Shown one piece after another: positions 11,351 to 59,338 of a stretch of DNA of 64,000 nucleotides. This stretch comes from Scenedesmus sp. PABB004 (Eukaryota). Numbering within the stretch: the stretch's first letter is position 1; every line of letters starts with the position of its first letter. The stretch lies in contig JABVCE010000012.1 of assembly GCA_014905635.1 (NCBI GenBank), positions 124,001 through 188,000 on the forward strand, read 5' to 3'. Below the pieces are notes generated by a model. The model had not been told where the DNA came from and searched no databases. It was given only the letters and a program-made list of their open reading frames with translations. A program made the position numbers and the translations under genes.

Positions 11351-12233
11351 TCACTCGGGCTGCGCCCGGATCCACGCGGCCACAGCTGTGTGGCCACACT
11401 CAGCCGCCACGCGCTCGCACTCGCCACGCTCCCACGGGCAGCCGTTGGCGCGCAGCCAGCGCAGCGCCTCCAGCTGCCCGCGCTCAGCAGCCCTGAAGCA
11501 CGCCCACAGATCCCACGGCGCGGGCTCGTCCTGGGCGCGCGCCCAGCGCAGCACCGCCAGCTGTCCGCCGTGGGCTGCTGTTGCGCAAACGCCCCCCAGG
11601 GCCTGCATCGCGATGCGCGCCCGGTACATCGCGGCGAGCTGGCCGGCGCGTGTTGCTCCCCAGCTCACGCTCCAGTCCCGGTGGCCCCAGTCCATGTTGA
11701 GGATGTCGTAACCGCACACTGCGCGCAGCCAGGTCAGCCCCGCCACGTCGCCGCACGCCGCGCGTGCCCTGGCCAGCCGCCCCTGCTGCCACCGATCACC
11801 CTGCGCCGCCCGCCAGGCCTCCTGCACCGCCGCCAGCGGCAGCTCGGGGCAGCGCAGCGAGACGACCGTGGCGCCGCGGAAGCGCTCGCGCGCCGCCTTG
11901 CACACCAGCTTGGCGGTCCACGCCTGCAGGGACGGCGGCAGGAAGCTCAGGACGTGGAGCACGAGGGTCTCGGGCAGGCCTGTCCACGGGCTGCGGGCGG
12001 CGCGGCGGGGCGAGAGGGGGTGAGCAGGGGAGGGGCGGGGGTGGGGGGGGGGGGAGGCGGTGAGGCGGCGCGCAGCGCCTGCTGGAGCTGCCTCTCGTTG
12101 TTGCGCGCCCGCCAGCCAATCAGCAGGCGCACCTCGCCTCCTCCTCGCCGGGCCCTTCCTCGCCTGCTGGCGCCGCCGGTGCGGGCGCGAGCGACAGACC
12201 GGCAAGCGAGAGTTCTGCCGGCGGCGATGACAT
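11351..12233 (-). CDS. F-box + ankyrin protein, copy 2 (type-B exon 1, one repeat fewer, replaced middle segment)
   Basis: Exon 1 MSSPPAELSLAGLSLAPAPAAPAGEEGPGEEEAR. Exon 2 PWTGLPETLVLHVLSFLPP...GQLEALRWLRANGCPW. Confidence 0.8.
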
Positions 12234-12850
12234 GGCGGGATGCTGGGGCCTGCGGGCCAGCAGGGAGCAGCAGGCGGCGCCGGCAGCGGGCGCGAGCGCG
12301 CGGCGGCGTGAGCGCAGCAACAGCAGCGCCCGCCCCGCCCGTGGCGCGGCGGCGGGGCGGTGTGCCTGCCAGCGACGCCCGGGACGCGCAGACCCGGCAG
12401 CACACGCCACACGCCCGCCACCCGCGCACCGCCGGCGCCCCCGCCGCCCGCAGCGAGCCCCGCGCAGCGCGGCCCGCCGCCGCTGCCTGCTCACCGCCCG
12501 CCAGCGCGGCTCGCCTGGCGCTGGTCTGGGCGGGCCGGCCCGGCCGTCAGGCGCCCGACGCGCGTCGCCCCGCCTGACCAGGGGCGCGCCGCGGGCGGGG
12601 CGGGCGCTGGGCGGCGGCGGCGCGCGTGCGTGCGGGAGCTGCAGGCCGCGGCCGGCGCTCGTGCGTGCGCGTGCAGCAGGGAGGCGCTGAGGGCGGCGGC
12701 TGTGTTGGGCGGCGGGGCGGCGCGCGGGGGGGGGCTCCTCGGCGGCGGCGCGGGCAGCCGGCCGGGCGGTGCCTGCGCCCTGGGCCCTGCACCGCCGCGC
12801 GCCTGCCGGGCGTCGCGGCGCGGCCGTCGTGTGGTCAGCCGGTTGCCAGC
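12234..12850 (-). repeat. Cassette leader, copy 2
   Basis: Same conserved blocks; bounded by the GCTGGCAACCGGCTGACC motif at ~12833-12850. Confidence 0.85.
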
Positions 12851-13020
12851 GCGCGCGGGGCGCCGCGAGCATCAACTTTCAACGCTGCCACCGCCACAGC
12901 ACACGCGCGCAGCGCGGCCCGCTGGTGCGCCCCCGCACACGCGCACAGCCAGGCAGGCGCGGGCAACCCCAGAGCCCTACGGCGAGCGCGCAGCCGACCG
13001 CTGCAGCCAAGCATCGTGCC
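12851..13020 (-). repeat. Conserved 3' trailer of the cassette (also ~17660-17870, ~19460-19630, ~40590-40790)
   Basis: Shared block GCACACGCGCACAGCCAGGCAGGCGCGGGCAACCCC and AACGCTGCCACCGCCACAGCAC downstream of copies 3, 4, 5 and 7. Confidence 0.8.
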
Positions 13021-13042
13021 CCCCTCCCCCCATCCCTCCTCC

Positions 13043-14108
13043 TCACCACACCTGCTCGTCCTCGTCCTCCTCCTCGTCCTCGTACGGCAACCACCAGCCA
13101 CACATGAGCAGCGCCTCCTGATACTCCTCATCGTTGCTGTCGTCCGGCGCCGCGGGCTGCGCCCGGATCCACGCGACCACGGCCTCGCGGCCGCCGCGCA
13201 CCGCCTGGCGCTCGCACACGGCGCGCTCCCACGGGCAGCCGCTGGCGCGCAGCCAGCGCAGCGCCTCCAGGTGCCCTTGCTCAGCCGCCGCCCGGCACGC
13301 CCTCCCGTCCCACGGCGCGGGCTCGGGCTGGGCGCGCGCCCAGCGCAGCATCTCCAGGTCGCCGCGCGCCGCAGCCCGGAAGCACACGTGAGTGCCCCAG
13401 GGCAGCGGCGGCGTCCGCAAGCGCGCCCAGCGCAGCACCGCCAGCTGCCCGCCCAGGGCTGCTCCCTCGCACACCTCCCCCAGGTACAGCCCCTGGTCGC
13501 GCGCCCACTCCAGCACAGCGAGCTGGCCGGCGTGCGCTGCCCGGCCCACAATGTTGCCCATGCCGCAGCCGGCGCCACGCAGCCAGGCCAGGCCCGCTAC
13601 GTCGCCGCACGCCGCGCGCCCCCCTGCCAGCCGCCAGTCCTGCATGGAACCACACTGCACCGCCCGCCAGGCCTCCTGCACCGCCGCCAGCGGCAGCTCG
13701 GGGCAGCGCAGCGAGACGACCGTGGCGCCGCGGAAGCGCTCGCGCGCCGCCTTGCACACCAGCTTGGCGGTCCACGCCTGCAGTGCCGGCGGCAGGAAGC
13801 TCAGGGCGTGGAGCACGAGGGGCTCGGGCAGGTCTGTCCACGGGCTGCGAGCGGCGCGGCGGGCGAGCAGACAAGGGGGCGGCAGTGAGGCCGCGCGCGG
13901 CGCCTGCTGCGCCTGGCTGTGGCTCAGTGCTCGGCGCCCGCCTGGCCAGGCAGCCCAAGACAGGGGGGCACCAGCAGCAGCAGCGCACCCACCTCGGCGC
14001 CGCCTCTGCGCCGCAAGGCGCCTCGCCTGAGGCGGCCGCTGCTGCCGCAGCCGCCCGCGCGCGCGTGGTCGGCCCGGCGCGCCGCGTGCCCGCCGGCGCA
14101 GCAGACAT
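13043..14108 (-). CDS. F-box + ankyrin protein, copy 3
   Basis: Exon 1 MSAAPAGTRRAGPTTRAR. Exon 2 PWTDLPEPLVLHALSFLPPALQAW... ending in an acidic tail EDEEEDEDEQVW. Confidence 0.8.
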
Positions 14109-14785: not shown

Positions 14786-14874
14786 GGCCGGAGGGTGGTC
14801 ACGCGTTGCACGCAGCCGCCCCCCCCCCCCCCCGCGAACCCCAGCCCCCCCGCCTGCGCCGGGCCTCGCGTGGC

Positions 14875-17224
14875 CTAGGCGCCGCCGCGCGACACCGCGG
14901 CGCGCAGGGCCGCCAGGTTTGCCTCCGCGGCGCGCAGCGCGGCGTCCTGGTGGGGCTGCAGGCCCTGGCCGCCAAAGCTCGACACGTCCTCCCAGTAGGG
15001 GTCGACCACCTGCGCGCGCAGCAGCAGCCGGCGGCGCGCGGCGCTCGCACGCGCCGCCGCGCGCGCCGTCGCAGCCGTCCTGCAAGCGCGCGGCCGCCGC
15101 GCCTTGCTGCGCAGGCCCGCCAGCTCCTCAATGACGGCGAGGCCGCAGAAAGGGACGTAGAGCTCGCTGTAGCCGCCCTCGTGCACCGCGACGACCCGCC
15201 CCGCGCACGACGGCGACGCGTCGGCGTGCGCGCGCAGCACAGAGGCAAAGTAGCTGCGGCGGCGCGGCGCGGCGGCGCGGCGGCGCGGCGCAGGCGGGGC
15301 GGCGCAGGCGGGGCGGTCGGGGGCCCGCCCTCGCACGCTTGCGCGCGAGACAGAGAGAGACAGAGAGAGAGACAGGCGGCCACACGCAGTTTGGAGGCCC
15401 CGCGGCGCGCGCGCGCAGCCGGCGCGCCGCCGTGCGCCGCCGGGCCTCCCGGGCGCACCGGAAGTCCTCGCTGCCGAGCATCATGTGGCCGAGCGGGTCG
15501 AGGTAGCTCGCGTCATAGCCTGGCGAGGCACGCAGCGGCGGCGGCGCGGGGGTGAGGGCTAACAGCCAGCAGCGCTGCTGCCATGTGCCACAAGCAGCAG
15601 CGGCCCTGGGTGCGCGCAGGGCTGGCGCGGCGCGCACCCGCAGACACCAGGATGAGCTGGGGCGCAAACGCGTCGAGCGCGGGCGCGACGATCCGTTCAA
15701 ACGCGGCGCGGTACGCCCCGCTCCCGCTGCCCGGCGGCAGCGGCACGTTGAGCGTCGTGCCCGCGCCCGCGCCCGCGCCGGTCTCGGACATGGCGCCTGG
15801 CGGCGGGGCGCCGCGGCGGTCAGCGGCGGTCAGCCGTGCACAGCGAGCACAGCGCGCTCAGCACGCGCAACTGCGCGCAGCGCACCCGAGCCGATGGGAT
15901 AGTTGCTGTCCTGGTGGAGCGACACAAACAGCACGCGCGGGTCCTCCCAAAACGCCTCCTGCGCGGCGCGGCGGCGCGGCCGGCGGACGCGCGCGACTCG
16001 GGCGGCCGCCGCCGCGGCGGCAGGGCCGGCAGGCCCCTGGCCTTGGCCGCACGGCGGCCGCGGGCGGCGGCGCGCGCCGCGCCTGCGTGCCGTTGCCGTG
16101 GTGGACGTCGTAATCAACGATCGCCACGCGCTCCAGGCCGTGCGCGGACAGCGCGTGCGCTGCGGCGACGGCCACATTGTTGAAGATGCAGTACCCGCCG
16201 CCGTCACGTGGCGTGGCGTGGTGCCCCGGCGGCCTGCCCCGCGGCGGCAGCGGACGGCGCGGCAGGTGGTGGTTGGTGGTTGGTGGTTGGTGGTGGCCAC
16301 CAACGGTGGCGGCGGCCGCCGCGCGGGCGGGGCCGGCGTGCGCCCGCTCGCCGCGCCCGCGCGCGCAGAGGGGAGGGCAGGGAGGCGCGGGGGCGGGGGC
16401 GGGGCGCGCCGGCGCGCCTGCAGAGGGCGTACGCGTTGCGCACGGCGCCGCCCAGCACCGCCTCGGTCGCCGCGATCGCGCCGCCCGCGGCGAGCGCGGC
16501 GAGGGCGTAGCCGCCGGGCATGAACGCAGACTCGTCGCCCACGCGGTGCACGCCCGCGCTGCCGTCGGCGCTCAGCGCGGCCACGCGCTCCACGTACGCG
16601 AGCGTGTGCACCCTGGCACGCCGGCGCGCAGCGCGGCATCGGCGCGGAGCGCGGCGCGGAGCGCTCGGCTCGGCCGCCGCCGCCGCACCGCGTGAGCTCC
16701 TCAACGCTCGCCTCGCGCGGCTGCAGCACGGCCAGCTGCTCCAGCAGCCCGCTGACGGTCACCAGGTTGTGCAGGCGGCGCTTGGTCTCCGCGTGCTCGG
16801 GGTACTGCCCCCGCGGCGGCGGCGTGCGGCGGTGAGCGCGGCGCGCGCGGCGGGCGACGGCGCGGCGGCAGGGCGCCCTCTCCGCGCGCGGCGCTCCAGC
16901 GGCGCCCGCCCGTGCGCCCCTGCCCCGCACCTGCATGGGCTGCACGTACTCCCGCAGGCTGCCCCAGGGCCCGGGGCAGTGCCAGAAGAACAGCTCGCTC
17001 CACAGGTAGCCCGTGCGCAGCGGCGCGCCACCGGCGCCGGCGCCGTCCCCGGCCGCACGCGCGGCGGCGCCGGCAACGGCGGCGACGCGCGGCGCCGCGC
17101 CGTGCCGCCGCGCTGGCGGCGGCGGCGGCGGCCGCCGCGCGGGGCGCGCGCACCGCCGCGCCGGCGCGCCGAGCAGCGCCGCGCCGCCCGCGCGCACTCC
17201 GTCGAGCCGCACGGGCGCTAGCAT
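14875..17224 (-). CDS. Class II histone-deacetylase-like amidohydrolase (bacterial HDAH/PA3774 type), paralog 1, transit-peptide-like N-terminus
   Basis: [92 protein letters not shown]. Confidence 0.92.
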
Positions 17225-17871: not shown

Positions 17872-18841
17872 TCAGCGGCCGTCGTCCGGCGACGCGGGCT
17901 GCGCCCGGATCCACGACACCACGGCCGCGTGGCCGTTGTCTGCCGCCGCACGCTCGCACGTGCCGCGCTGCCACGGGCAGCCGTTGGCGCGCAGCCAACG
18001 CAGCACCTCCAGGTGCCCCCCCTCGGCCGCCGCGTGGCACACCCGCCCGTCCCCGGGTGCAGGCTGCGCCTGGGCACGCGCCCAGCGCAGCATCTCCAGG
18101 TCGCCGCGCAGCGCGGCGTGGTAGCACACGTAGTTGCCCCAGGGCAGCGGCAGCACCTGCCCGCGTGCCCAGCGCAGCAACGCGAGCTGCCCGCCCATGG
18201 CTGCTGCCATGCACACGTTAAGCAGGTACAGCCCCTTGTCGTGCGCCCACTCCAGCACAGCGATCTGGCCGGCGCGCGCTGCTTCCCAGACCACGCCGCC
18301 CGTGCCGCAGCCGGCGCGGTGCAGCCAGGCCAGCCCCGCCACGTCCCCGCACGCCGCGCGGGCCTCGGCCAGCTGTTGCTGCCGCTCCCTATCACCCTGC
18401 ACCGCCCACCACGCCTCCTGCACCGCCGCCAGCGGCAGCTCGGGGCAGCGCACCGACACAACCGTGGCGCCACAGAAGCGGTTGCGCGCCGCCTTGCAGA
18501 CCTGCCTGGCGCTCCACGCCTGCAGGGACGGCGGCAGGAAGCTCAGGACGTGGAGCACGAGGGGCTCGGGCAGCTCTGATAGCGGGCTGCTGGCGGCGCG
18601 GGGCGGGGGCGGGCGCGCGCAGGGGCGGCGGTGAGGCGGCGCCTGCTGCAGCTGGCTGTGGCTCAGCGCTCAGCGCCCGCCTGGCCAGGCAGCCCCAGAC
18701 AGGGGGGCACCAGCGCAGCCAGCGCGCCCACCTCGGCACCACCTCTGCACCGCCAGGCGCCTCGCCCGCCGCCGCTGCCGCTGCCGCCCGCGCGCGCATG
18801 GTCGGCCCGGCGCGCCGCGTGCCCGCCGGCGCAGCAGACAT
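17872..18841 (-). CDS. F-box + ankyrin protein, copy 4
   Basis: Exon 1 MSAAPAGTRRAGPTMRAR; exon 2 ELPEPLVLHVLSFLPP...GHLEVLRWLRANGCPW...DDGR*. Confidence 0.8.
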
Positions 18842-19633: not shown

Positions 19634-20686
19634 TCAGCGGCCGTCGTCCGGCGCCGCGGGCTGCGCCCGGATCCACGACACCACGGCCTCATGGCCTTTG
19701 CTGGCCGCCGCTTCCTCGCAGAGGCCACGCTCCCACGGGCAGCCGTTGGCGCGCAGCCAGCGCAGCGCCTCCAGGTGCCCGTGCACAGCCGCCACCTGGC
19801 ACGCCCTCCAGTCCCACGGTGCGGGCTCGTCCTGGGCGCGCGCCCAGCGCAGCATCTCCAGGTCGCCGCGCGCCGCAGCGCAGTGGCACACCCAGTCGTC
19901 CCGTGGCGCAGGCTCGTCCTGGGTGCGCGCCCAGCGCAGCATCGCCAGGTCGCCGCGCGCCGCAGCGTGGTAGCACACCCAGTCGCCCCAGGGCAGCGGC
20001 GGCGCCTGCGCGCGCGCCCAGCGCAACACCGCCATGTGCCCGCTCGAGGCTGCTATGTTGAATGCGTACCCCAGGTCCAGCCCCTCGCCGCGTGCCCACT
20101 CCAGCACAGCGATCTGGCCGGCGAGTGCTGGTGGCCCGACCACCTCGAGCACGTCGCAGCCGGCGCCGCGCAGCCAGGCCAGCCCCGCCACGTCGCCGCA
20201 CGCCGCGCGTGCCCTGGCCAGCCGCCCCTGCTGCCACCGATCACCCTGCGCCGCCCGCCAGGCCTCCTGCACCGCCGCCAGCGGCAGCTCGGGGCAGCGC
20301 AGCGAGACGACCGTGGCGCCGCGGAAGCGCTCGCGCGCCGCCTTGCACACCAGCTTGGCGGTCCACGCCTGCAGGGACGGCGGCAGGAAGCTCAGGACGT
20401 GGAGCACGAGGGGCTCGGGCAGGCCTGTCCACGGGCTGCGGGCGGTGCGGCGGGGCAGGGCGCGGGGCGGCGGTGAGGCAGCGCACGGCGCCTGCTGCAG
20501 CTGGCTGTGACTCGCTGCAGCGCCCGCCTGGCCAGGCAGCCCCAGACAGGGGGGGCACCAGCAGCAGCAGCGCACCCACCTCGGCGCCGCCTCGTCGCCG
20601 CCAGGCGCCTCGCCCGCCGCCGCCGCCGCAGCTGCCCGCGCGCGCGTGGTCGGCCCGGCGCGCCGCTTGCCCGCCGGCGCAGACAT
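19634..20686 (-). CDS. F-box + ankyrin protein, copy 5 (one extra ankyrin repeat)
   Basis: Contains both GDLAMLRWARTQDEPAPRDDWVC and GDLEMLRWARAQDEPAPWDWRAC, i.e. an internal repeat duplication. Confidence 0.8.
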   Translation of the reverse strand: MSAPAGKRRAGPTTRARAAAAAAAGEAPGGDEAAPRWVRCCCWCPPCLGLPGQAGAAASHSQLQQAPCAASPPPRALPRRTARSPWTGLPEPLVLHVLSFLPPSLQAWTAKLVCKAARERFRGATVVSLRCPELPLAAVQEAWRAAQGDRWQQGRLARARAACGDVAGLAWLRGAGCDVLEVVGPPALAGQIAVLEWARGEGLDLGYAFNIAASSGHMAVLRWARAQAPPLPWGDWVCYHAAARGDLAMLRWARTQDEPAPRDDWVCHCAAARGDLEMLRWARAQDEPAPWDWRACQVAAVHGHLEALRWLRANGCPWERGLCEEAAASKGHEAVVSWIRAQPAAPDDGR

Positions 20687-21342: not shown

Positions 21343-21346
21343 ACGC

Positions 21347-23419
21347 TCAAGCGCCGCCCCGCGCGGCGACCGCGGCGCGCAGCCCCGCGAGCGGGCCCGC
21401 CTCCGCCGCGCGCAGCAGCTCGTCCTGCCACGGCTGCAGGCCCTGGCACCCGACCGCGGTGTCGGGCAGCCCCGGGTCGACGACGGTCGTCGCCGCGCCG
21501 CTGAGCTCCTCCAGCACGGCGAGGCCGCAGAAGGGGACGTAAAATGACGAGTAGCCGCCCTCGTGGAAGTGGAGCAGCCGCCCGCCGCAGTGACGCGCCG
21601 CCGCGGCCGCGAGCACGCGCGTGAAGTACCTGCCAGCGCGCCGCGCGGCGCGGCGCGGGGGTGGGCGCGCTGAACCCTACGCGCTGCGGGCACGCGCTGC
21701 ACGCGGCGCGGGCGCACCGGTAGTCCTCGCTGGTGCACATCTGGGCGGCGAGCGGGTCATAGAAGCTGGCATCAAAGCCTGACGGGGGCAGGGCGGACGC
21801 GGGGCGGAGGCGGTGCGGGCGGTGGGCAGAGAGGCGGCGCCTGGCTGGCTGGCTGCGGGCGGGCGGGCGGCGTGCACGTACGGCTCCGGCCGCGTCGCGC
21901 GTGCGCGCAGGGCTGGCGCGGCGCGCACCCGCAGACACCAGGATGAGCTGGGGCGCAAACGCGTCGAGCGCGGGCGCGACGATCCGGTCAAGCGCGGCGC
22001 GGTACGCCCCGCTCCCGCTGCCCGGCGGCAGCGGCACGTTGAGCGTCGTGCCCGCGCCCGCGCCCGCGCCGGTCTCGGACATGGCGCCTGGCGGCGGGGC
22101 GCCGCGGCGGTCAGCGGCGGTCAGCCGTGCACAGCGAGCACAGCGCGCTCAGCACGCGCAACTGCGCGCAGCGCACCCGAGCCGATGGGATAGTTGCTGT
22201 CCTGGTGGAGCGACACAAACAGCACGCGCGGGTCCTCCCAAAACGCCTCCTGCGCGGCGCGGCGGCGTGGCCGGCGGACGCGCGCGGTCGGGCGGGCGCG
22301 GCGCGGTCGCGGCGGCAGGGCCGGCAGGCCCCTGGCCTTGGCCGCACGGCGGCCGCGGGCGGCGGCGCGCGCCGCGCCTGTGTGCCGTTGCCGTGGTGGA
22401 CGTCGTAATCAACGATCGCCACGCGCTCCAGGCCGTGCGTGGACAGCGCGTGCATTGCGGCGAGGGCGATGTTGTTGAAGATGCAAAACCCCATGCCCTG
22501 CGCCGCGCGCGCGTGGTGCCCCGGCGGGCTGCCCCGCGGCGGCGGGCGGCGGGTGGTGGTGGTGGTGCGGCGGCGGAGCGTGAGCGCCCAGGACAGGCAT
22601 GGGCGCGGGCGCCGGCGCTGCAGCCGGAGCCTGGAGCGGCGCGCGGCGCTTGCGCCCCGCGGGCCCCGGGCGGGCGCCGCTCACCGCACGAGCGCGTAGC
22701 CGCCCTCGATGTCGCCCCGCAGCGCCGCGTCGACGAGGGCGAGGCTGCCGCCCGCCGCGAGCGCGGCAATCTCGTAGCCGCCGGGCGCCATCGACACCTT
22801 GGGTGTGGGTTGTGTGGCGGGGCGCGGCGGCAGGGGCAGCGGGTGGGAGGAGGGCGGCAGGCGGGTCGGCCGCGCCGTGCGGGGCCGTGGCCCGGGCCGG
22901 GGCTGCTAGCTCCCGCCGCGCCGCGCCTCGGGGCCGACGCGGTGCATGCCCTTGCTGCTGTCGCGGCTGAGCGCGGCGACCGCGTCGACGTAGTCGGGCG
23001 TGTGCACGCGCGTGAGCTCCTCGCGGCTCGCCGGCCGCGGCTTGACCTGCACGAGCGCGTCGATCAGGCCCGACGCGTGCACCAGGTTGTTCAGGCGGCG
23101 CTTGGTGTCGGCGTTCCTTGGGGTGCAAGTTTGGAACGGCGGCGGCGGCGGCGAAGGCGGCCATGACGCGCCGCGCTCGCAGGACGCGCACGCGCGCGGC
23201 GGCGGGCCGCGGCGCCGCTCCAACAGAAGAATGACGCGGCGCGCCTCACTCAAAGTGCTCGACCGGCTCGAGGCCCTTGCCCGCGTTCTGCATCGCCCCG
23301 GGGTTGTGCCACATGAAGAGCTCGTGAAAGAGGTACCCCGTGCGCCGGGAGGCACGCGGCGGCGAGCCCTGCGCCGGCGCCGAGCCCCCCGCCGGCGCCG
23401 AGCCCAAAGTCTCAGCCAT
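21347..23419 (-). CDS. Class II histone-deacetylase-like amidohydrolase (HDAH/PA3774 type), paralog 2, short N-terminus
   Basis: [12 protein letters not shown]...[84 protein letters not shown]. Confidence 0.92.
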
Positions 23420-23743
23420 CGCCGCCGCTGCTGCGCCGCGCCGCGCCGCGCCGCTGTGTGCGTGCGGTCCGCCCGCCGCGAGCGCTGTCGGTGCGGTGTT
23501 GCTGACGCGGCGGCGCTGAGCGGGCGGGCGGCTTGTGGCGGCGCGGGCGGCAGCGGCGCGGAGGCAGCAGCGAGCATCTTGGCAAACCGCCGGGGCTTAA
23601 AGCTGGGCGCCCGCGCTTGCCCTGTGCCCCCGCAAGTTGACGGCCGGCCACTCGGCGGTGCGCACGCAGCAGCCTGTGGGGGGACGCGCACGCGCGGGCA
23701 GCGGAGGTGCGCGTGGCGGCGGCGAAGACTGCGCGCGGCGGCG

Positions 23744-25289
23744 ATGGCGCGCCCGAAGGCGGATCTCCTGCTGGCGGGCAAAGAGGCGGCCTCGAAGAAG
23801 GCGGCCTCGAAGAAGGCGCAGCTGAAGAAGTACAAGGGCCGCGTCGCGGCGCTGCAGGTGGGCAATCGTGGCCGGCGCCTGCCCTGCCTGCCCTGCCCGC
23901 GGCCGCGCGCGCCTCACCGCTGCCCCCAGCGCGCGCCCCTGGTGCCCAGGCCCGCGAGCGCGCGGCGGCGCGCCCAGCGGCGCCGCGCATGGGCCGCCGC
24001 GCCCGCGCGCCGCGGCCGCTGCCGCTGCTGCTGCGGCCAGCGTAGCACGCTCCGCCGCGCCGCCGCAGGGCGAGGTCACCGCTCTCCAGGCGCGCGTGGC
24101 GGCGGAGGAGGGCGCGGCGGCTCGCTACTACGACGCGCTGGAGGCGCGCGGCCTCATCTGCGGCGTCTGCTTCGAGGGTGCGCCGCGCCGCGCCGCGCTC
24201 GCCGCGCCTCGTGCTGCACGCCAGCTCACGCGCGGCGCCCCTGCTGCGCTCGGCGCCGCGCCGCGCAGACGTGGTGCAGGCCGCCGACCTCGCCTGCTGC
24301 GCCAACCGGCTGTGCGCGGGGTGCGAGGCCGCCGTCGCGGCGCGCCACGCGGCGTGCCCCTTCTGCCGCGCCTCGTGGCGCACGGCGGCGCAGGAGGCCG
24401 AGGCGGCCGCGCGGCGGCGGCGGCGGCGGCGCCCGGCGACCCGGGGGAGGCGCTGCTGCGCACGCTGCGCGCGGCGGCGGCGCGCCGCGAGGCCGGCGGG
24501 GGCGCCGGCGGCGCCGGCGGCGCGCCCGACGGCGACTACACCGTGTTGCTCGCCGCGGCGGCGGAGGCCGCGGTCGCGGCGCACAGCGGGCCGAGCGCGG
24601 CCTGCGGGCTCTGCGGCGACGTGCTGCTGCGCGCGAGCCTCGCGACCGCGGAGGCGCTGCCCGACGTGCTGCTGTGCCGCAGCTGCTGGCGCAACTGCCC
24701 CGACCTCGCGGGCGCGCCCTTCCCCGCGCGCGGCGCGGGCGCGCTGCACCTCGCGTTTGGCGGCGGCGGCAGCGACAGCGACAGCGGCGACCTCAGCGAC
24801 AGCGAGGCGGAGGCAGAGGCAGCGGCGTTCGCGGAGGCGCTGCGGCGGCACCACGCCTCGGCGGCGACCGCCGCGGCGCCCGCGGCGGGCGCGGCGGCTG
24901 AGGGCGCGGGCGCGTCGCCGCGCAGCAGCCGGCGCCTGCAGGCCGCGAGCGCGCGCAGCCCCGTGGCGGGCACCACGGGCGGCGCGCGCGGCGGCAGCAG
25001 CGGCATGCGCGACAAGGGCGACGCCGGCGGCAGCATCGGCAAGCGCGACAAGCGCGGCGCCGGCGGCAGCGGCGGCAAGCGCGACAAGGGCGACGCCGGC
25101 GGCAGCGAGCGCAAGCGCCGCCGCGACAAGGGCGGCGCCGGCAGCAGCAGCGCTGCTGCCGCGGCGGCGGCGGTCGCCGACGCAGCGGCGCCGGCCAAGA
25201 AGCGCAGCAAGTCGGCGAGCAGCGGCGGCGGCGGCAGCAAGAGCAGCGGCGGCAAGCGCAGCAGCAGCACACGCGCCGCGGGGCGCTAG
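23744..25289 (+). CDS. Coiled-coil + RING-finger protein (putative E3 ligase) with low-complexity basic tail
   Basis: MARPKADLLL...KKYKGRVAALQ | ...LICGVCFE|DVVQAADLACCANRLCAGC...ACPFCR. Second Cys cluster CGLC...CRSCWRNC. Apparent 1-base frame slip near 24410. Confidence 0.7.
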
Positions 25290-25633: not shown

Positions 25634-29766
<4,133 letters not shown>

Positions 29767-29983: not shown

Positions 29984-30973
29984 TCAGGCTTGCTCGTCCG
30001 CCGACGCGGGCTGCGCCCGGATCCACGACACCACGGCCTCGTGGCCGTTGCGGGCCGCCTCGCGCTCGCAGCCCCCGCGCCACCACGGGCAGCCGTTGGC
30101 GCGCAACCAGCGCAGCGCCTCCAGGTGCCTGTGCATAGCCGCCGCCCAGCACACGTGGCTGTCCAACGGCGCGGGCTCGGCCTGGGCACGCGCCCAGCGC
30201 AGCATCTCCAGGTCGCCGCTCCAAGCAGCCCAGAAGCACACCCGGTCGCCCCAGGGCAGCGGCGGCGTCTGCGCGCGCGCCCAGCGCAGCACGGCCATGT
30301 GCCCAGCAAAGGCTCCTGAACTGCACACGCCCCCCAGGTCAAGCCCCTGGCCGCGCGCCCACTCCAGCACGGCGAGCTGGCCGGCATGCGCTGCCGAGCC
30401 GACCATGTTGCCCATGCTGCAGTCGCCGCCGCGCAGCCAGGCCAGCCCCGCCACGTCGCCGCACACCGCGCGCGCGCTGGCCAGCCGCCCCTGCTGCCAC
30501 CGATCACCCTGCACCGCCCGCCACGCCTCCTGCACCGCCGCCAGCGGCAGCTCAGGGCAGCGCAGCGAGACGGCGCCGCGGAAGCGGTCGCGCGCCGCCC
30601 TGCAGACCAGCTTGGCGCTCCACGCCTGCAGGGCTGGCGGCAGGAAGCTCAGGACGTGGAGCACGAGGGGCTCGGGCAGGTCTGCCCACGGGCTGCGGGC
30701 GGCGCGGCGCGGGCGAGCAGTTGAGGCGGCGTGCGGGGGCGTGCGCGCAGGGGCGGCGGTGAGGCGGCGCGCGGCGCCTGCTGCAGCTGGCTGTGGCTCA
30801 GTGCTCGTCGCCCGCCTGGCCAGGCAGCCCCAGACAGGGGGGCACCAGCGCAGCCAGCGCGCCCACCTCGGCACCTCTGCTCCGCCAGGCGCCTCGCCCG
30901 CCGCCGCTGCCGCTGCCGCCCGCGCGCGCGTGGTCGGCCCGGCGCGCCGCGTGCCCGCCGGCGCAGCAGACAT
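29984..30973 (-). CDS. F-box + ankyrin protein, copy 6
   Basis: Exon 1 MSAAPAGTRRAGPTTRAR; exon 2 PWADLPEPLVLHVLSFLPPALQAW...NGCPW...ADEQA*. Confidence 0.8.
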   Translation of the reverse strand: MSAAPAGTRRAGPTTRARAAAAAAAGEAPGGAEVPRWARWLRWCPPVWGCLARRATSTEPQPAAAGAARRLTAAPARTPPHAASTARPRRAARSPWADLPEPLVLHVLSFLPPALQAWSAKLVCRAARDRFRGAVSLRCPELPLAAVQEAWRAVQGDRWQQGRLASARAVCGDVAGLAWLRGGDCSMGNMVGSAAHAGQLAVLEWARGQGLDLGGVCSSGAFAGHMAVLRWARAQTPPLPWGDRVCFWAAWSGDLEMLRWARAQAEPAPLDSHVCWAAAMHRHLEALRWLRANGCPWWRGGCEREAARNGHEAVVSWIRAQPASADEQA

Positions 30974-32006: not shown

Positions 32007-32032
<26 letters not shown>

Positions 32033-32037
<5 letters not shown>

Positions 32038-32850: not shown

Positions 32851-32870
32851 CATCAGGCGCCGGGAGCAGC

Positions 32871-39626: not shown

Positions 39627-40586
39627 ATGTCTGCTGCGCCGGCGGGCAAGCGGCGCGTGGGTCGACCACGCGCGCAGCAGCAGCGGGCGAGGCGCCCGGC
39701 GGCGAGGATGAGGTGGCGCCGAGGTGGGCGCGCTGCCGCTGCTGTTGCTCGCCTGACTGGGGCTGCCTGGCCAGGCGGGCGCTGAGCACTGGGCCTCAGC
39801 CGGCTGCAGCAGGCGCTGCGCGCCGCCTCACCGCCTGCCGCCCCGCCCTCGCCCCGCCGCGCTGCCCGCAGCCCGTGGACAGACCTGCCCGAGCCCCTCG
39901 TGCTCCACGTCCTGAGCTTCCTGTCGCCGGCACTGCAGGCGTGGAGCGCCAAGCTGGTCTGCAAGGCGGCGCGCGGGCGCTTCCGCGGCGCCACGGTCGT
40001 CTCGCTGCGCTGCCCCAAGCTGCCGCTGGCGGCGGTGCAGGAGGCCTGGCGGGCGGCGCAGGGCCACCAGGCGCGGCAGCGGCAGCTGAGCGAGGCGCGC
40101 GCGGCGTGTGGGGATGTGGTGGGGCTGGCCTGGCTGCGCGGCGCCGGCTGCGACATACGCGGCGTGTGCTTCGAAGCTGTGGAGCACAGCCAGCTCGCCG
40201 TGCTGGAGTGGGCGCGTGACCAGGGGCTCGACCTGGAGTGGGTGTGCAATGGAGCAGCCGAGGGCGGGCAGCTGGCGGTGCTGCGCTGGGCCCGTGCGCA
40301 GACGCCGCCGCTGCCCTGGGGCGACGGTGTGTGCGTCAACGCTGCGGCGCGCGGCGACTTGCAGATGCTGCGCTGGGCGCGCGCCCAGTCGCCGCCCGCG
40401 CCGTGGGACTGGTGGACGTGCTTGATTGTGGCCAGACACGGGCAGCTGGAGGCGCTGCGCTGGCTGCGCGCCAACGGCTGCCCGTGGCGCCGCGGCTGCT
40501 GCGAGCGCGCGGCGGCACGCGAGGGCCACGAGGCCGTGGCCGCGTGGATCCGGGCGCAGCCCGCGGCGCCGGACGACGGCCGCTGA
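39627..40586 (+). CDS. F-box + ankyrin protein, copy 7 (exon 1 appears frameshifted by 1 nt: pseudogene or sequence error)
   Basis: Exon 1 reaches the donor in phase 1 rather than phase 2. Exon 2 from ~39872 is intact: PWTDLPEPL...NGCPW...DDGR*. Confidence 0.7.
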
Positions 40587-50039: not shown

Positions 50040-50722
50040 GCGCTGGCAACCGGCTGACCGCGCGGCACCCTTTCGCGGGCCGTGCGCACCCGATGCAGCC
50101 GCCCTGTGCTGGCAGCGGCACTCTCTGCGCGCCGCGGTGCGCCACGCCCGCCCGGCGGCGGCGGCGCAGGGCCCAGGGCGCAGGCGCCGCCCAGCCGGCT
50201 GCCCGCGCTGGCGCCGAGGAGGGCGCGCCCCGCCCTGCCGCCCACAGCCGCCGCCCTCAGCTTCCTCTGCCACACACGCACAAGCGCCGCCTCAGCGCTC
50301 GCGCACGCGCCGCGCCACTCAGCGTTTGAACTGCGGCGCCCTTCCCCGCCCGCGGCGCGCCCCTGGCCAGGCGGGGCGACGCGCGTCGGGCGCCTGACGG
50401 CCGGGGCGACCCGCCCAGTGCAGCGCCAGGCGAGCCGCGCGCGCTGGCAGGCGGAGAGCAGGCAGCGGCGGGCGGCCCGCGCTGCGCGGCGCCCGCTGCG
50501 GGCGGCGGGGTCTGCGGTGGCGCTCGGGCGGCGGGCACGTGGCGTGGACCGCCGGGCCTGCGCGCCCCGGGCGTCGCTGGCAGGCCGCCGCCGCGCCGCC
50601 GCGCCGGGGGCGGGGGCGGGCGCTACGCGCTGCTGCCGCTGCGCTCACGCCGCCCGCGCGCTCGCCCCCGCTGCCGGCGCCGCCTGCTGCTCCCTGCTGG
50701 CACGCAGGCCCCAGGCGGCGCC
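50040..50722 (+). repeat. Cassette leader, copy 8
   Basis: Starts with GCTGGCAACCGGCTGACCGCGCG at ~50042. Confidence 0.85.
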
Positions 50723-51780
50723 ATGTCTGCTGCGCCGGCGGGCAAGCCGCGCGCCGGGCCGACCACGCGCGCGCGGGCGGCTCCGGCGGCGGCGGCGGGC
50801 GAGGCGCCCGGCGGCAACGAGGCAGCGCCAAGGTGGGCGCGCTGCCGCTGCTGCCCCTTCCCCCTGACTGGTGCTGCTGGCCAGGCGGGCGCTGCGCAGC
50901 GAGCCTCAGCCGGCTGCAGCAGGCGCCGCGCGCCGCCTCACCGATGCCCCTGCGCGCGCGCCTCACCGCCGCCCCGCGCCCGCCCGCCCCGCCCTGCGCC
51001 GCCCGCAGCCCGTGGACAGACCTGCCCGAGCCCCTCGTGCTCCACGTCCTGAGCTTCCTGCCGCCGGCCGTGCAGGCGTGGCGTGCCGAGCTGGTCTGCA
51101 AGGCGGCGCACGAGCGCTTCCGCGGCGCCAGGCGTGTCTCGCTGCGCTGCCCCGAGCTGCCGCTGGCGGCGGTGCAGGAGGCCTGGCGAGCGGTGCAGGG
51201 TGACGGGTGGAAGCAGCAGGATAAGAGGCAGCAGCTGGCCAGCGCGCGCGCGGCGTGCGGCGACGTGGCGGGGCTGGCCTGGCTGCGCGCCGCCGGCTGC
51301 AGCATGGTCAGCATGGTGGGCTCGGCAGCGCGCGCAGGCCAGCTCGCCGTGCTGGAGTGGGCGTGCAGCGAGGGGCTGGACCTGGGGGGCGTGTGCATGG
51401 CAGCAACCGACGGCGGGCAGCTGGCGGTGCTGCGCTGGGCGCGCGCGCAGGCGCCGCCGCTGCCCTGGGGCGACTACGTGTGCACCATCGCTGCGCTGCG
51501 CTGCAACCTGGAGGTGCTGCGCTGGGCGCGTGCCCAGGCCGAGCCCGCGCCCTGGAGCGAGGAGACGTGCGTAGTGGCGGCTGGGCGCGGGCAGCTGGAC
51601 GCGCTGCGCTGGCTGCGCGCCAACGGCTGCCCCTGGCTGCGCGTCGGCTGCGAGCGCGCGGCAGCACGCGAGGGCCACGCGGCCGTGGCCGCGTGGGTCC
51701 GGGCGCAGCCCGCGGCGGCGGACGACGGCGGTGTTGAGGATGATGACTCTGATCAGGAGGAGTATGTGGACTACTACTAG
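50723..51780 (+). CDS. F-box + ankyrin protein, copy 8
   Basis: Exon 1 MSAAPAGKPRAGPTTRAR; intron ~50832-51008; exon 2 ends EDDDSDQEEYVDYY*. Confidence 0.82.
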
Positions 51781-52638: not shown

Positions 52639-53631
52639 ATGTCGTCGTCGCCGGCAGAGCTCTCGCTCGCCGGGCTGTCGCTCGGCCCCGCAGCGGCGGC
52701 GCCAGCAGGCGGCGAAGGGCCGAGCGAGGAGGCGGCGAGGTGCGTCTGCTGCTGGCCAGGCGCCTGCTACTTCCCGGGCGGGCCCCTGCGCGTTCTCCGA
52801 CGACAGCAGCGGGCGCCGCGAGAGCCGGTCAGGGCGGCCTGACCTGACCGCCCCGCGCGCCGCCGCCGCTGCCCCTCCCCGCTCCGCAGCGAGGCAGCCC
52901 TGCTGCAGTTGCCCGAGCCGCTCGTGCTCCACGTCCTGAGCCTCTGGCCTCCTTCACTGCAGGCGTGGTGCGCCAGGCTGGTCTGCAAGGCGGCGCGCGA
53001 GCGCTTCCGCAGGGCCATGGTCGTCTCGGCGGCCTGCCCTGAGCTGCCGCTGGCGGCGGTGCAGGAGGCGTGGCGGGCGGTGCGGGGCCACGAGCGGCAG
53101 CAGTGGCGGCTGGCCGAGGCGCGCGCGGCGTGCGGCGACGTGGCGGGCCTGGCCTGGCTGCGCGGCGCCGGCTGCGACACGCGCTACGTGTGCTGGGCAG
53201 CTGCGCGCGCAGGCCAGATCGCGGTGCTGGAGTGGGCGCGCAGAGAGGGCCTGCGCCTGCAGGGCGTGTGCGCAAGAGCGGCCAAGGGCGGGCAGCTGGC
53301 GGCGCTGCGCTGGGCGCGCGCGCAGGTGCCGCCGGCACCCTGGAACAACTGGGTCTGCTACGAAGCTGCGTCGCGTGGCGACCTGGAGATGCTGTGCTGG
53401 GTACGTGGCCAGGCCGCCCCTGCGCCGTGGAACGAAGACACCTGCTGGGCGGCGGCCGCCAACGGGCAGCTTGACGCGCTGCGCTGGCTGCGCGCCAGCG
53501 GCTGCCCGTGGCTGCGCAGCGAGTGCGAGCGCGTGGCGGCCGGGCGCGGCCACGCTGCCGTGGCCGCGTGGATCCAGGAGCAGCCAAGAGGCATTGTCCT
53601 GGCACAGAACTGCCTCGAGACTGAAGAGTGA
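52639..53631 (+). CDS. F-box + ankyrin protein, copy 9 (type-B exon 1)
   Basis: Exon 1 MSSSPAELSLAGLSLGPAAAAPAGGEGPSEEAAR; exon 2 QLPEPLVLHVLSLWPPSLQAWCARLVCK...SGCPW. Confidence 0.8.
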
Positions 53632-53659: not shown

Positions 53660-54170
53660 CGGCGGCAGGCCAGGGCGGCGGTGCAGGGCCCAGGGCGCAG
53701 GCGCCGCCCGGCCGGCTGCCCGCGCCGCCGCGAAGGAAGGCCCCCGCGCGCGCCGCCCCGCCGCCCACTGCCGCCGCCCTCAGCGCCTCCCTGCCGCACA
53801 CGCACACACACGAGCGCCGGCCGCGGCCCACAGCTCCCGCACGCACGCGCGCCGCCGCCGCCCAGCGCCCGCCCCCGCCCGCGGCGCGCCCCTGGCCAGG
53901 CGGGGCGACGCGCGTCGGGCGCCTGACGGCCGGGCCGACCCGCCCAGCGCAGCGCCAGGCGAGCCGCGCGCGCGGGCAGGCGGGGAGGGGCAGCAGCGGC
54001 GGGCGGGCCGCGCTGCGCGGCGCCCGCTGCGGGCGGCGGGGGCGCCGGCGGTGCGCGGCGGGCGGGCTTGTCGCGTGTGCTGCCGGGCCTGCGCGCCCCG
54101 GGCGCCGCCGGCAGGACCGCCGCCGCGCCAGGGCGGGGGCGGCGCACGCTGCTGCTGCCGCTGCCGTCGT
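53660..54170 (+). repeat. Orphan cassette leader (copy 10) with no F-box/ankyrin gene, directly upstream of the BRE-like gene
   Basis: All main leader blocks present; similarity ends ~50 bp before the ATG at 54219. Confidence 0.85.
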
Positions 54171-55935: not shown

Positions 55936-55939
55936 GCCG

Positions 55940-56597: not shown

Positions 56598-57472
56598 ATG
56601 TCCTCCGCGCCGGCGGGCAAGCGGCGCGCCGGGCCGACCACGCGCGCGCGGGCAGCTGCGGCAGCTTCGGCGGACGAGGCGCCCGGCGGCGACGAGGCGG
56701 CGCCGAGGTGGGCGCGCTGCTGCTGTCAATCCCTGGCTGGTGCCGCTGGCCAGGCGGGTGACGAGCACCGAGCCTCAGCCAGCTGCAGCAGGCGCCGCGC
56801 GCCGCCTCACCGCCGCCCCGCGCCCTGCCCCGCCACGCCGTCGCCCGCAGCCCGCTGCCCGAGCTGCCCCAGCCCCTCGTGCTCCACGTCCTGAGCTTCC
56901 TGCCGCCGGCGCTGCATGCGTGGACCGCCAAGCTGGTCTGCAAGGCGGCGCACGAGCGCTTCCGCGGCGCCACGGTCGTCTCGCTGCGCTGCCCCGAGCT
57001 GCCGCTGGCGGCGGTGCAGGAGGCGTGGCGGGCGGTGCAGGGTGGTGGGGAGCGGCAGCAGATTCGGCTGGCCGGGGCGCGAGCGGCGTGCGGCGATGTG
57101 GCGGGTCTGGCCTGGCTGCGTGGCGCCGGCTGCGACATGGGCGGCGTGGCCTGGGCAGCAGCGGAGCACGGCCAGCTCGCCGTGCTGGAGTGGGCACGCG
57201 ACCAGGGGCTGGACCTGGAGGCGGTGTGCGTTGCAGCAGCCAAGGGCGGGCAGCTGGCGGTGCTGCGCTGGGCGCGCGCCCAGGCCGAGCCGCCGCCGTG
57301 GGGCGACCTGCCGTGCTTCATCGCGGCCATCCGTGGGCAGCTGGACGCACTGCGCTGGCTGCGCGCCAACGGCTGCACGTGGTCGCGCGACCTGTGCGAG
57401 AGCGTGGCGGCAGACGAGGCCGTGGTCGCGTGGATCCGGGCGCAGCCCGCGGCGGCGGACGACGGGCCCTGA
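56598..57472 (+). CDS. F-box + ankyrin protein, copy 11 (one repeat fewer; acidic tail out of frame to 57554)
   Basis: Exon 1 MSSAPAGKRRAGPTTRAR; exon 2 PLPELPQPLVLHVLSFLPP...NGCTW. Confidence 0.8.
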
Positions 57473-57729
57473 CTGGGACACGGATGAGGAGGAGGGCTGG
57501 AGCTCGGACGAGGGGGAGGACGAGGACGGGGAGGAGGGGGAGCACGCCGCGTGAGTGCGGCCGGCCGCGCGCCGCGCGCCGCCCCAGGCTGTGCCCGGCC
57601 GCGGCTGGCGGCCAACCGGTTGCGCGTGTGCGTGTGTGGGGTGGCGCCGCGCTGCCTGAGCCTGAGCCCGTGGCGGCAGCGGACACACGGCTCAGCGCGC
57701 GCGGCGGGGCGAGTTGACGCTGGCGCCAC

Positions 57730-58424
57730 GGGCTAGCAACCGGCTGAGCGCGCGGCGGACCCTTTCGCGGGCCGTGCGCACCCAACGCGGCTGTCGTGTG
57801 CTGGCAGCGGCGCCCTCTCTGCGCCGCCGCACCGCGCCCGCCCGGCGGCGGCGGCGCAGGGCCCAGGGCGCAGGCGCCGCCCGGCCGGCTGCCCGCGCCG
57901 CCGCCGCCGAAGAGGCCCCCCGCGCGCGCCGCCCCGCCGCCCACAGCCGCCACCCTCAGCGCTCCTGCCGCACACGCACACGAGCGCCGGCCGCGCCCCT
58001 CACAGCGCCCACACGCACACCGCGCCGCCGCCGCCCCGCGCCCGCCCCCGCCCGCGACGCGCCCCTGGCCAGGCGGGGCGCGGACGTGCGGGCGCCTGGT
58101 GACTAGGCCGTGCCGCCGAGCGCAGCGCCAGGCGAGCCGGGCGCGCGGGCAGGCGGGGAGGGCAGCGGCGGCGGGCGGGCCGCGCTGCGCGGCGCCCGCC
58201 GCGGGCTGCGGGGGCACCGGCGGTGCGCGGCGGGCGGGCATGTCGCGTGGGCGGCCGGGCCTGCGCGCCCCGGGCGTCGCTGGCAGGCCCGCCGCCGCGC
58301 CGCCGCGCCGAGGCGGGGGCGGGCGCCGCGCGCTGCTGCTGCCGCGCTCACGCCGCGCGCGCGCTCGCCCGTTGCCGGCGCCGCCTGCTGCTCCCTGCTG
58401 GCCCGCAGACTCTCAGACGGCGCC
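57730..58424 (+). repeat. Cassette leader, copy 12
   Basis: Starts with GCTAGCAACCGGCTGAGCGCGCG; the following CCTTTCGCGGGCCGTGCGCACCC is shared with copy 8. Confidence 0.85.
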
Positions 58425-59338
58425 ATGTCTGCTGCGTCGACGGGCAAGCGGCGCGCCGGGCCGACCACGCGCGCGCGGGCGGCTGCGGAAGCGGCAGCCG
58501 CCGCAGGCGAGGCGCCTGGCGGCGCAGAGGCGGCGGCGAGGTGGGCGCGCTGCTGCTGCTGCTGCTGCCCCCCTGTCTGGGGCTGCCTGGCCAGGCGGGC
58601 GCCCATCACTGAGCCACAGCCAGGCGCAGCAGGCGCCGCGCGCCGCCTCACCGCCGCCCCTGTGCGCCGCCTCACCGCCGCCGCCCTCGCCCCGCCAGCG
58701 CCGCCAGCAGCCCGTGGACAGACCTGCCCGAGCCCCTCGTGCTCCACGCCCTGAGCTTCCTGCCGCCGGCCCTGCAGGCGTGGCGTGCCAAGCTGGTCTG
58801 CAAGGCGGCGCGCGAGCGCTTCCAGGGCGCCACGGTCGTCTCGCTGCGTTGCCCCGAGCTGCCGCTGGCGGCGGTGCAGGAGGCGTGGCGGGCGGTGCAG
58901 GGTGATGGTGAGGTGACGAGGGCGCGCGCGGCGTGCGGCGACGTGTCGGGCCTGGCCTGGCTGCGCGGCGCCGGCTGCAGCATGGACAGTGGCGTGGGCT
59001 GGGAAGCAGCGAAGCACGGCCAGCTCGCCGTGCTGGAGTGGGCGCGAGGCGCGGGGCTGAACCTGCAGCTCGTGTGCGCTGGAGCAGCCCTGGGCGGGCA
59101 GATGGCGGTGCTGCGCTGGGCGCGCGCCCAGGACGAGCCCGCGCCGTGGGACCACCTGTCGTGCTTTGCGGCGGCTTGGAAAGGGCACCTGGAGGCGCTG
59201 TGCTGGCTGCGCGCCAACGGCTGCCCGTGGCGGCGTGGCGTGTGCGAGCGCGGCGCGGCACGCGAGGGCCACGAGGCCGTGGTCGCGTGGATCCGGGCGC
59301 AGCCTGCGGCGGCAGACGACCAGCCGGGCTGGGGATGA
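58425..59338 (+). CDS. F-box + ankyrin protein, copy 12 (one repeat fewer)
   Basis: Exon 1 MSAASTGKRRAGPTTRAR; exon 2 PWTDLPEPLVLHALSFLPP...GHLEALCWLRANGCPW. Confidence 0.8.

Follow-up and report, generated by a model that had tools for sequence, protein, structure and literature searches.

We analyzed a stretch of 64,000 nt of contig JABVCE010000012.1 from the green alga Scenedesmus sp. PABB004 (hereafter, the window; positions are counted from its first letter) and found that it carries 11 paralogous two-exon genes encoding, from the N terminus on, a short Ala/Arg-rich leader, an F-box-like three-helix motif with a linker, and ankyrin repeats. Sixteen of 233 codons had a posterior probability above 0.95 of a nonsynonymous/synonymous rate ratio (dN/dS, w) greater than 1 (naive empirical Bayes [NEB]). 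Fourteen of these sites lie in the ankyrin repeats, one in the linker helix and one at the C-terminal end, and none falls in the F-box-like motif. We are highly confident that this is a real, functional gene family under diversifying selection. As the best explanation of the data as a whole, we propose that it is probably a diversifying family of F-box-ankyrin substrate receptors.

The G+C content is 0.74 to 0.82 across every 2-kb step of the window (1-64000), and 238 open reading frames (ORFs) of at least 150 aa are present, in all six frames. Because long ORFs occur in all frames at such a composition (74 to 82% G+C), ORF lists were uninformative and we relied on homology instead; a stop-free frame in this window would be weak evidence of function. 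Scanning all six frames for the motif L[RK]W[ALV]R, we obtained 28 matches in 11 stop-to-stop frames, 87 nt (29 aa) apart within copies, and the last exon could be aligned in all 11 copies (Table 1). The gene is compact (approximately 270 codons). Exon 1 measures 97 to 116 nt and is followed by a phase 2 GT..AG intron of 142 to 176 nt and by a last exon encoding the F-box-like motif, the linker, and the repeats. This model, with an intact ATG and no stop, applies to 10 of the 11 copies, and the last exon is free of frameshifts in all of them. A frameshift suspected in repeat 1 of c2 was rejected, as the nucleotide alignment shows in-frame insertions only. Exon 1 exists in two types: type A, found in nine copies, encodes MSAAPAGKRRAGPTTRAR..., and type B, found in c2 (12133-12233) and c9 (52639-52739), encodes MSS(P/S)PAELSLAGLSL.... 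Repeat number is variable as well, c5 having one additional 29-aa unit and c2, c10, and c11 one fewer each, and the junctions of these losses and gains fall inside the conserved LRWARAQ or AA motifs. A preliminary description of the region had located the family at 11351-59338. This interval indeed spans the copies from the stop codon of c2 to that of c11, but c1 (29-1043), from which it also quoted, lies outside.

The same description had called the repeats ankyrin-type, and our searches agree with it. Each copy harbors 4 to 6 short repeats of 26 to 29 residues. Pfam Ank_4 was matched in all 11 copies at an E value of ≤0.01, and nine of them attained the gathering score of 22.7 bits, c2 (20.5) and c11 (21.2) remaining below. 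A single-sequence phmmer search of the PDB gave no match at an E value of ≤0.01; the family profile gave 265 matches, led by designed ankyrin repeat proteins (DARPins), with E values down to 1.7e-29. The AlphaFold2 model of the c7 last-exon protein (61-sequence alignment) reached a predicted local distance difference test score (pLDDT) of 90.8 overall and of 96 to 98 across the repeats, showed paired helices in every repeat, as in the curved solenoid of stacked helix-turn-helix units typical of ankyrin proteins, and had as its top PDB matches in Foldseek the ankyrin domains of Espin-1 AR, AnkB, EHMT1, and FEM1 as well as DARPins. The repeat periods are 26, 29, 29, and 27 residues, unlike the canonical 33-residue repeat with its protruding beta-hairpin, and the DARPin alignment needs 4 to 6 extra hairpin residues per repeat on the DARPin side. 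As judged from these alignments, the repeat is a short variant of the ankyrin fold, with a beta-hairpin finger predicted to be approximately 4 to 6 residues shorter. The five repeats of c7 share between 2 and 17 of 29 residues with each other.

We then looked at the positions reported to differ in almost every copy on a nearly fixed scaffold. The 11 strings given for one repeat (DDHTCYLAAWNG ... DHLSCFAAAWKG) and the seven given for the one before it (VCRF ... VCYE) all occur in the window, and the contrast that they illustrate is real. In the codon table, scaffold columns contain mostly one or two residues, often with a single codon in all copies, whereas the variable (x) positions contain 5 to 8 different residues among 8 to 11 copies. 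The x positions are not all equivalent: the residue preceding the conserved Cys (V/T/A) is only semi-variable, and the second x after AA is variable, yet its posterior does not exceed 0.5. Of 775 copy pairs compared at the 16 best sites, 89.9% have different amino acids, as opposed to 11.8% of 8296 pairs at 162 constrained sites, and even the closest copy pairs still differ at 10 to 16 of 12 to 16 selected sites. These sites are enriched in Trp, Glu, His, Tyr, Ile, and Asn.

Selection was quantified on the aligned last exons, keeping the 233 codons found in 8 or more of the 11 copies (G+C at third codon positions [GC3], 0.91), with a self-written GY94 likelihood program and F3x4 frequencies. 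The gene tree is star-like, with bootstrap values of 14 to 81. Nei-Gojobori (NG86) means of dS and dN were 0.21 and 0.20 for the whole region, 0.10 and 0.075 for the F-box, and 0.20 and 0.115 for the ankyrin framework; at the 37 x positions of the preliminary description, the Jukes-Cantor (JC) dN amounted to 0.94. The whole-gene dN/dS of 0.97 would be in line with redundant or dead copies drifting at their surface positions under relaxed constraint or decay. The frameshift in exon 1 of c7 and the little weight that open frames carry in a window with 238 ORFs of this length point the same way. However, neutrality was rejected by the site models. The log likelihood (lnL) was -4322.2 for M0 (w = 0.50), -4073.2 for M1a, and -3980.9 for M2a, the latter with w of 0.11, 1, and 37 at 68, 24, and 8.6% of sites. 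Twice the difference in lnL (2dlnL) was 184.6 for M2a versus M1a (p = 8e-41) and, with branch lengths proportional to those of M0, 191.4 for M8 versus M7 and 139.0 for M8 versus M8a, and p values over the site-model tests ranged from 1e-12 to 1e-42. Fifteen replicates simulated under the M1a null on the same tree gave 2dlnL values of 0 to 8.0, with one above 5.99. A class with w above 1 is thus present, and the diversifying selection put forward in the preliminary description goes beyond mere relaxation. Furthermore, divergence at the selected sites by far exceeds that of the intron (JC distance, 0.155 to 0.20) or the upstream DNA (p-distance, 0.128), which together with dS (0.20 to 0.21) served as neutral yardsticks. 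Approximately 68% of the sites being held at a w of about 0.11, and no frameshift being found in 11 last exons, decay or relaxed constraint was already disfavoured, and we give it hardly any credence.

To place the selected sites, the family profile was aligned over DARPins ('rtcaaAArgGhLev' over 'TPLHEAARAGHLEI'). By this alignment the conserved Cys corresponds to consensus position 8, AA to positions 11 and 12, and Gly to position 15. The i, i+3/4, i+7 spacing of positions 6, 9/10, and 13, which recur among the selected sites (Table 1), puts these on one face of helix 1, and positions 8, 11, and 12 beside them are invariant. The likeness to DARPins claimed in the preliminary description holds in that the variable positions overlap, but not in the length of the repeat (29 rather than 33 residues), in the hairpin, which is shorter, or in the inclusion of sites 6 and 9. 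In canonical ankyrin repeats, positions 6 and 9 are conserved framework residues. A designed ankyrin library was randomised at positions 2, 3, 5, 10, 13, and 33, yielding a continuous binding surface made of the beta-turn and helix 1 (PMC4308713). Positions 5, 10, and 13 are thus varied in both cases, in good agreement with the earlier proposal that the variable positions occupy the ankyrin binding face, here presumably the N-cap together with one face of helix 1. Judging by the alignment and the geometry of the helix, the selected sites would fall where ankyrin domains bind ligands.

The same sites vary beyond the window. Twelve proteins of this alga encoded outside the window contain 15 further family segments, and among these, 87.8% of pairs differ at the 16 sites, compared to 19.3% at constrained sites (Mann-Whitney p = 1e-10). 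The closest database relatives of the repeated protein are likewise proteins of Scenedesmus sp. PABB004, at 44 to 72% identity. The family is a lineage-specific set of small two-exon nuclear genes, with 11 copies here and, counting from protein databases only, at least 15 further segments elsewhere in the same alga.

From its sequence profile, the N-terminal motif is likely an F-box. Pfam F-box-like (PF12937) was matched by 9 of the 11 copies, with E values of 7.6e-5 to 7e-3. When a profile of the N-terminal 80 aa was searched against the PDB, all six matches at an E value of ≤10 were F-box proteins (MAX2/D3 four times, FBXO42, and FBXO2; E = 1.3e-3 to 0.05). Folded alone, the domain gave a pLDDT of 72, with short helices at residues 8-16, 20-30, and 32-37. 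Comparison of this model with 48,161 chains by VIA-align placed the Legionella AnkB-Skp1 complex on top (Z 3.8; root mean square deviation, 3.3; 43 aligned residues; 26% identity). Approximately nine of the top 50 rows were F-box chains by title, and those that were checked had 18 to 29% identity, compared to mostly 2 to 14% for the others. In Foldseek, F-box proteins took ranks 1 to 4 and 7, all of them non-significant. Within the gene, conservation is highest in this motif (dN 0.075). The N-terminal module is rare in public data: among 1.84 billion representatives, 53 matched at an E value of ≤1e-3 and 10 at ≤1e-30. Ten representatives were looked up, three of which came from Scenedesmus sp. 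PABB004 and seven from environmental assemblies.

Several observations weigh against reading these genes as diversifying F-box-ankyrin receptors. None of the 11 copies reaches the gathering score of F-box-like (best, 22.8 versus 24.3 bits), the alignment spans only profile positions 1 to 30 of 47, Foldseek returned nothing at an E value of ≤0.001 for the N-terminal model (best E, 1.6), and the VIA-align Z score of 3.8 was equalled by unrelated helical chains. In c7, the loss of 1 nt from exon 1, compared with the other ten copies, puts the shared ATG out of frame. The burial or exposure of the selected sites is inferred from alignment and helix periodicity. Additionally, recombination was detectable (pairwise homoplasy index [PHI] test, own implementation; p = 0.002), and pairwise distances are mosaic, c4 and c6 differing by 4.8% in exon 1 plus intron and by 20.6% in the ankyrin region. 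The w of the positive class varies by model from 3.8 to 41, the codon models come from our own script, the posteriors are NEB rather than Bayes empirical Bayes (BEB), and M8 is probably at a local optimum. Finally, pairs with the same residue have different codons in 16 of 68 cases at selected sites, compared to 765 of 6777 at constrained sites.

The shortfall of the N-terminal motif opens an alternative, namely, that these proteins are diversifying ankyrin binders without a working F-box that act outside an SKP1-cullin-F-box (SCF) ligase, as stoichiometric inhibitors, as adaptors of other pathways, or as self/non-self recognition factors. The sub-threshold Pfam scores in all copies over 30 of 47 profile positions, the pLDDT of 72, and the lack of a significant Foldseek match for the N-terminal model would all be in line with it. 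Conversely, a motif with no SCF role would not be expected to find F-box proteins in six of six PDB matches, to bring F-box chains in Skp1 complexes to the top of the VIA-align list, where sequence identity sets them apart, or to be the best-preserved part of the gene and devoid of all 16 selected sites. We therefore consider this alternative improbable, and the family probably consists of SCF receptors, as far as the profile and the model of the motif can tell.

Recombination can inflate site-model tests, and because of this, we refitted the models under several conditions. M2a remained better than M1a for the F-box plus linker with its own tree (2dlnL 12.4), for repeats 0-2 (96.7) and repeats 3-5 (54.5), each with its own tree, after removal of c2 and c9 (187.9), and with F61 frequencies (180.6). 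The existence of the positive class does not hinge on the model, unlike its size.

Recombination also bears on whether the pattern could have been produced by directed mutation, either as codon-targeted hypermutation or as gene conversion in patches from diverged donor cassettes, with only a minor contribution of selection. In favor of such a process, 77% of the residue-differing pairs at selected sites differ at 2 or 3 nucleotides, GC3 is 0.76 at these sites compared to 0.93 elsewhere, and same-residue pairs use different codons there twice as often as at constrained sites. The lower GC3 is as expected for codons with a fast turnover. Convergence or slightly raised local rates could account for the two-fold synonymous excess, but an excess of this size falls far short of the residue pattern, in which residue differences are in excess approximately 7.6-fold. 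Moreover, variable and near-invariant codons interleave every 1 to 4 codons in five repeats, beyond what conversion tracts could achieve, and self-comparison of the window revealed no donor cassettes. Directed mutation is therefore very unlikely to be the main cause.

We thus return to diversifying F-box-ankyrin substrate receptors. According to this model, purifying selection keeps the F-box and the ankyrin framework, and strong diversifying selection swaps residues on the helix 1 face and N-cap in every repeat, giving each paralogue a distinct binding surface. The ankyrin repeats would be the target-binding domain, and each paralogue would act as the substrate receptor of an SCF ubiquitin ligase, delivering a rapidly changing target of its own for ubiquitination. 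Viral, parasite, or selfish-element proteins would be the most plausible targets; that they are pathogen proteins is a tentative idea, which we hold to be possible rather than probable. More speculative still, and in our view unlikely, is a germline-encoded intracellular "degradation immunity" of green algae, in which an F-box-ankyrin repertoire, with each receptor tuned to a different viral or parasite protein by diversifying selection, would send such proteins to the proteasome. If true, this would represent immune recognition in Chlorophyta that involves neither NOD-like receptors (NLRs) nor RNA interference and is built on a natural DARPin-like scaffold, and it would mirror the F-box-ankyrin families carried by giant viruses. 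Very little is known about how green microalgae recognise viruses and parasites, and the family offers a concrete, testable candidate that combines an effector handle (F-box-like) with 14 defined specificity positions. In addition, the short (29-residue) ankyrin scaffold has evolved naturally and accepts widely different residues at fixed positions, which may make it interesting for binder design.

Self-comparison of the window indicated how the family may have grown. The duplicated unit measures approximately 1.65 kb and consists of approximately 560 nt of upstream DNA plus the gene; counted from the F-box start, it extends from about -860 to about +700, and homology ends abruptly at the stop codon. 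The upstream non-coding segment was co-duplicated with every copy (pairwise identity, 84 to 91%) and presumably contains the promoter and 5' untranslated region. No coding periodicity was detected in the upstream 565 nt (p = 0.42), in a test of low power, since the coding parts likewise lack a third-position excess (p = 0.67 and 0.83). Copies often form head-to-tail pairs whose members are 1.85 kb apart (c2-c3, c4-c5, c8-c9, and c10-c11), and the strand changes at approximately 35 kb: the minus strand carries the six copies to the left of this point (c1 to c6), and the plus strand carries the five beyond it (c7 to c11). Besides the gene units, self-similarity in the window was limited to two other repeat pairs. 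We propose that the family grew as the unit of approximately 1.65 kb, comprising promoter and gene, was repeatedly duplicated in place, in many cases yielding head-to-tail pairs, and that some gene conversion and unequal crossing-over between repeats accompanied this growth.

Upstream of the pairs c2-c3 and c4-c5 lies a direct repeat of approximately 670 nt with 94% identity (15610-16278 and 21901-22567), which suggests that the gene pair was duplicated as a block. The genes inside the duplicated pair blocks are far more diverged than this flank. Between the minus- and plus-strand copies, there is an inverted repeat of approximately 830 nt, also with 94% identity (32030-32850 and 35787-36615), and the spacing of the copies is near mirror-symmetric (10257/1849/4742/1854 versus 11137/1887/3955/1860). 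A mirror-image duplication of the whole locus was nevertheless rejected, as the intervening DNA is dissimilar and copies at mirrored positions are not paired in the gene tree.

Concerning the genomic setting, a comparative paper gives 78.5% G+C, 39.8 Mb, and only 7,092 annotated genes for the alga (PMC12571836). Of 99 long ORFs outside the units, seven had a Pfam match at an E value of ≤1e-4. One of these, to Apolipoprotein, was dismissed as spurious (25 versus 90 bits). The other six, located between the copies, correspond to V-ATPase subunit F, a histone-deacetylase fragment, a proteasomal AAA ATPase, a class-3 lipase, and a protein kinase. These being ordinary nuclear genes, the window is host nuclear DNA of a Scenedesmus-type green alga and not a viral island. 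In this region, public gene models are partly chimeric, and the family is therefore largely invisible in current protein sets. P0056 (1486 aa, Scenedesmus sp. PABB004) is 97 to 100% identical to the window at 32161-40583, in at least seven pieces on both strands that include the lipase-like gene (36961-38548) and c7 (39876-40583), with complete identity over several exons, that of c7 among them, and is a chimeric gene model. Further family members are embedded in models of 850 to 1500 aa, and P0021 fuses an Rrp36-like protein with an F-box fragment.

Table 1. The gene copies, their selected sites, and other features of the window
Feature	Position	Strand	Remarks
c1	29-1043	-	Exon 1 940-1043, intron 780-939, exon 2 to stop at 29-31; 5 ankyrin-like repeats, acidic tail
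c2	11351-12233	-	Alternative exon 1 (MSSPPAELSLAG...), one repeat fewer, in-frame 30-nt insertion in repeat 1
c3	13043-14108	-	Two-exon model intact; long acidic C-terminal tail
c4	17872-18841	-	Two-exon model intact
c5	19634-20686	-	Two-exon model intact; additional 29-aa repeat is a duplicate of repeat 3
c6	29984-30973	-	Two-exon model intact
c7	39627-40586	+	Last exon intact, used for structure model; exon 1 with 1-nt deletion
c8	50723-51780	+	Two-exon model intact; acidic tail
c9	52639-53631	+	Alternative exon 1; intron 52740-52889 (GT..AG), taken directly from the sequence; most divergent copy
c10	56598-57472	+	Intact; one repeat unit lost via repeat 3/repeat 4 junction
c11	58425-59338	+	Intact; without repeat 3
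Selected codons (16), starts in c7	40080, 40173, 40239, 40248, 40251, 40260, 40326, 40338, 40347, 40410, 40413, 40422, 40434, 40488, 40497, 40581	+	
Selected sites, repeat 1			Consensus position 10
Selected sites, repeat 2			Consensus positions 6, 9, 10, 13
Selected sites, repeat 3			Consensus positions 6, 10, 13
Selected sites, repeat 4			Consensus positions 5, 6, 9, 13
Selected sites, repeat 5			Consensus positions 4, 7
Upstream non-coding segment of c8 (example)	50157-50721	+	Approximately 560 nt, no 3-base periodicity
Solo upstream segment, no gene after	53674-54164	+	Directly after c9; 82.5% identity to c8 unit
V-ATPase subunit F exon fragment	3976-5598	+	Pfam
Histone deacetylase exon fragment	22909-23913	-	Pfam, below cut-off
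Proteasomal AAA ATPase exon fragment	26633-28231	+	AAA 58.5 bits, OB-C domain
Class-3 lipase exon fragment	36751-38520	+	Pfam
Protein kinase exon fragment	59498-61585	-	Pfam

Among known systems, the best structural matches were viral. Ankyrin and F-box families of Pandoravirus and Cedratvirus (BFVD) share the short ankyrin subtype with the alga, with template modelling (TM) scores of up to 0.70 and 21 to 38% identity, and some of them carry an F-box; unlike the algal genes, they belong to viruses of amoebae. Searched against the viral structure library, the c7 model (39870-40583) also matched Bodo saltans virus, and viral E values ranged from 1e-10 to 1e-6; solved ankyrin structures gave 1e-4 or weaker, at 10 to 21% identity. 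One may ask whether the copies are endogenised giant-virus genes instead of a host family, as the matches to Pandoravirus, Cedratvirus, and Pithovirus ankyrin proteins (E = 2.8e-10 to 1e-6), two of them Pandoravirus proteins annotated as 'F-box domain containing', are much better than those to any solved ankyrin structure. However, the copies share the 74 to 82% G+C of their surroundings, have spliceosomal GT..AG introns, and are interspersed with the host genes for V-ATPase F, proteasome AAA ATPase, lipase, and kinase, and a scan of a viral contig collection with the c7 protein gave six pattern matches, none of which was a relative by tblastn. Base composition, introns, and neighboring genes argue for the alga's copies being resident host genes, and a giant-virus origin is most improbable. 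The short 29-residue ankyrin subtype seems common to protists and their giant viruses.

The same order of domains, an N-terminal F-box followed by ankyrin repeats, is found in Legionella pneumophila AnkB (PDB 5k35), the top VIA-align row. AnkB is, however, a single bacterial effector gene and not a diversifying host family, and the match is weak (Z 3.8). With DARPins, which rank first in the PDB search with the family profile, and with ANK-N5C, the family has in common a constant framework with variation concentrated at the beta-turn/N-cap and helix 1, and with the ANK-N5C design it also has positions 5, 10, and 13 in common (PMC4308713). It differs from DARPins in being natural, in its 29-residue repeat with a shorter hairpin, in the selection at sites 6 and 9, and in the occurrence of Gly, Trp, and Cys at variable sites.

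In fungal NLRs, positively selected hypervariable sites of ankyrin and TPR repeats lie on the inner helices and hairpin, on the concave face, according to Dyrka et al. 2014 (PMC4986451). Similarly, the algal family has hypervariable, positively selected positions on a conserved ankyrin framework, with 14 ankyrin sites of P(w>1) >0.95 at helix 1/hairpin positions, and a variable repeat number. In contrast, the fungal receptors possess a central NACHT or NB-ARC domain, and their internal repeats are at least 85% identical (PMC4986451). None of the 11 algal proteins has a NACHT or NB-ARC Pfam match at an E value of ≤0.01, and with 2 to 17 of 29 residues shared between the repeats of c7, diversity lies between paralogues and not in shuffled internal repeats.

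A parallel in mode of evolution is offered by the expanded F-box families of nematodes and plants. We did not find a positively selected F-box-ankyrin family of green algae in the literature, and a Sphaeropleales comparative paper mentions neither "ankyrin" nor "F-box" in its main text (PMC12571836). In the nematode and plant families, the F-box is under purifying selection, and positive selection acts on the C-terminal recognition domain (Thomas 2006, cited in PMC8120010). They are likewise lineage-specific tandem expansions, and a role against pathogens has been proposed for them too (PMC8120010). Their recognition domains are, as listed there, FTH, FBA, LRR, WD40, and kelch, whereas the domain found here is ankyrin (PMC8120010); moreover, the host is a unicellular chlorophyte and the F-box is divergent, below the Pfam cut-off. 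Overall, this comparison leads us to regard the algal genes, with reasonable though not full assurance, as a rapidly diversifying F-box substrate-receptor family of a kind already known elsewhere.

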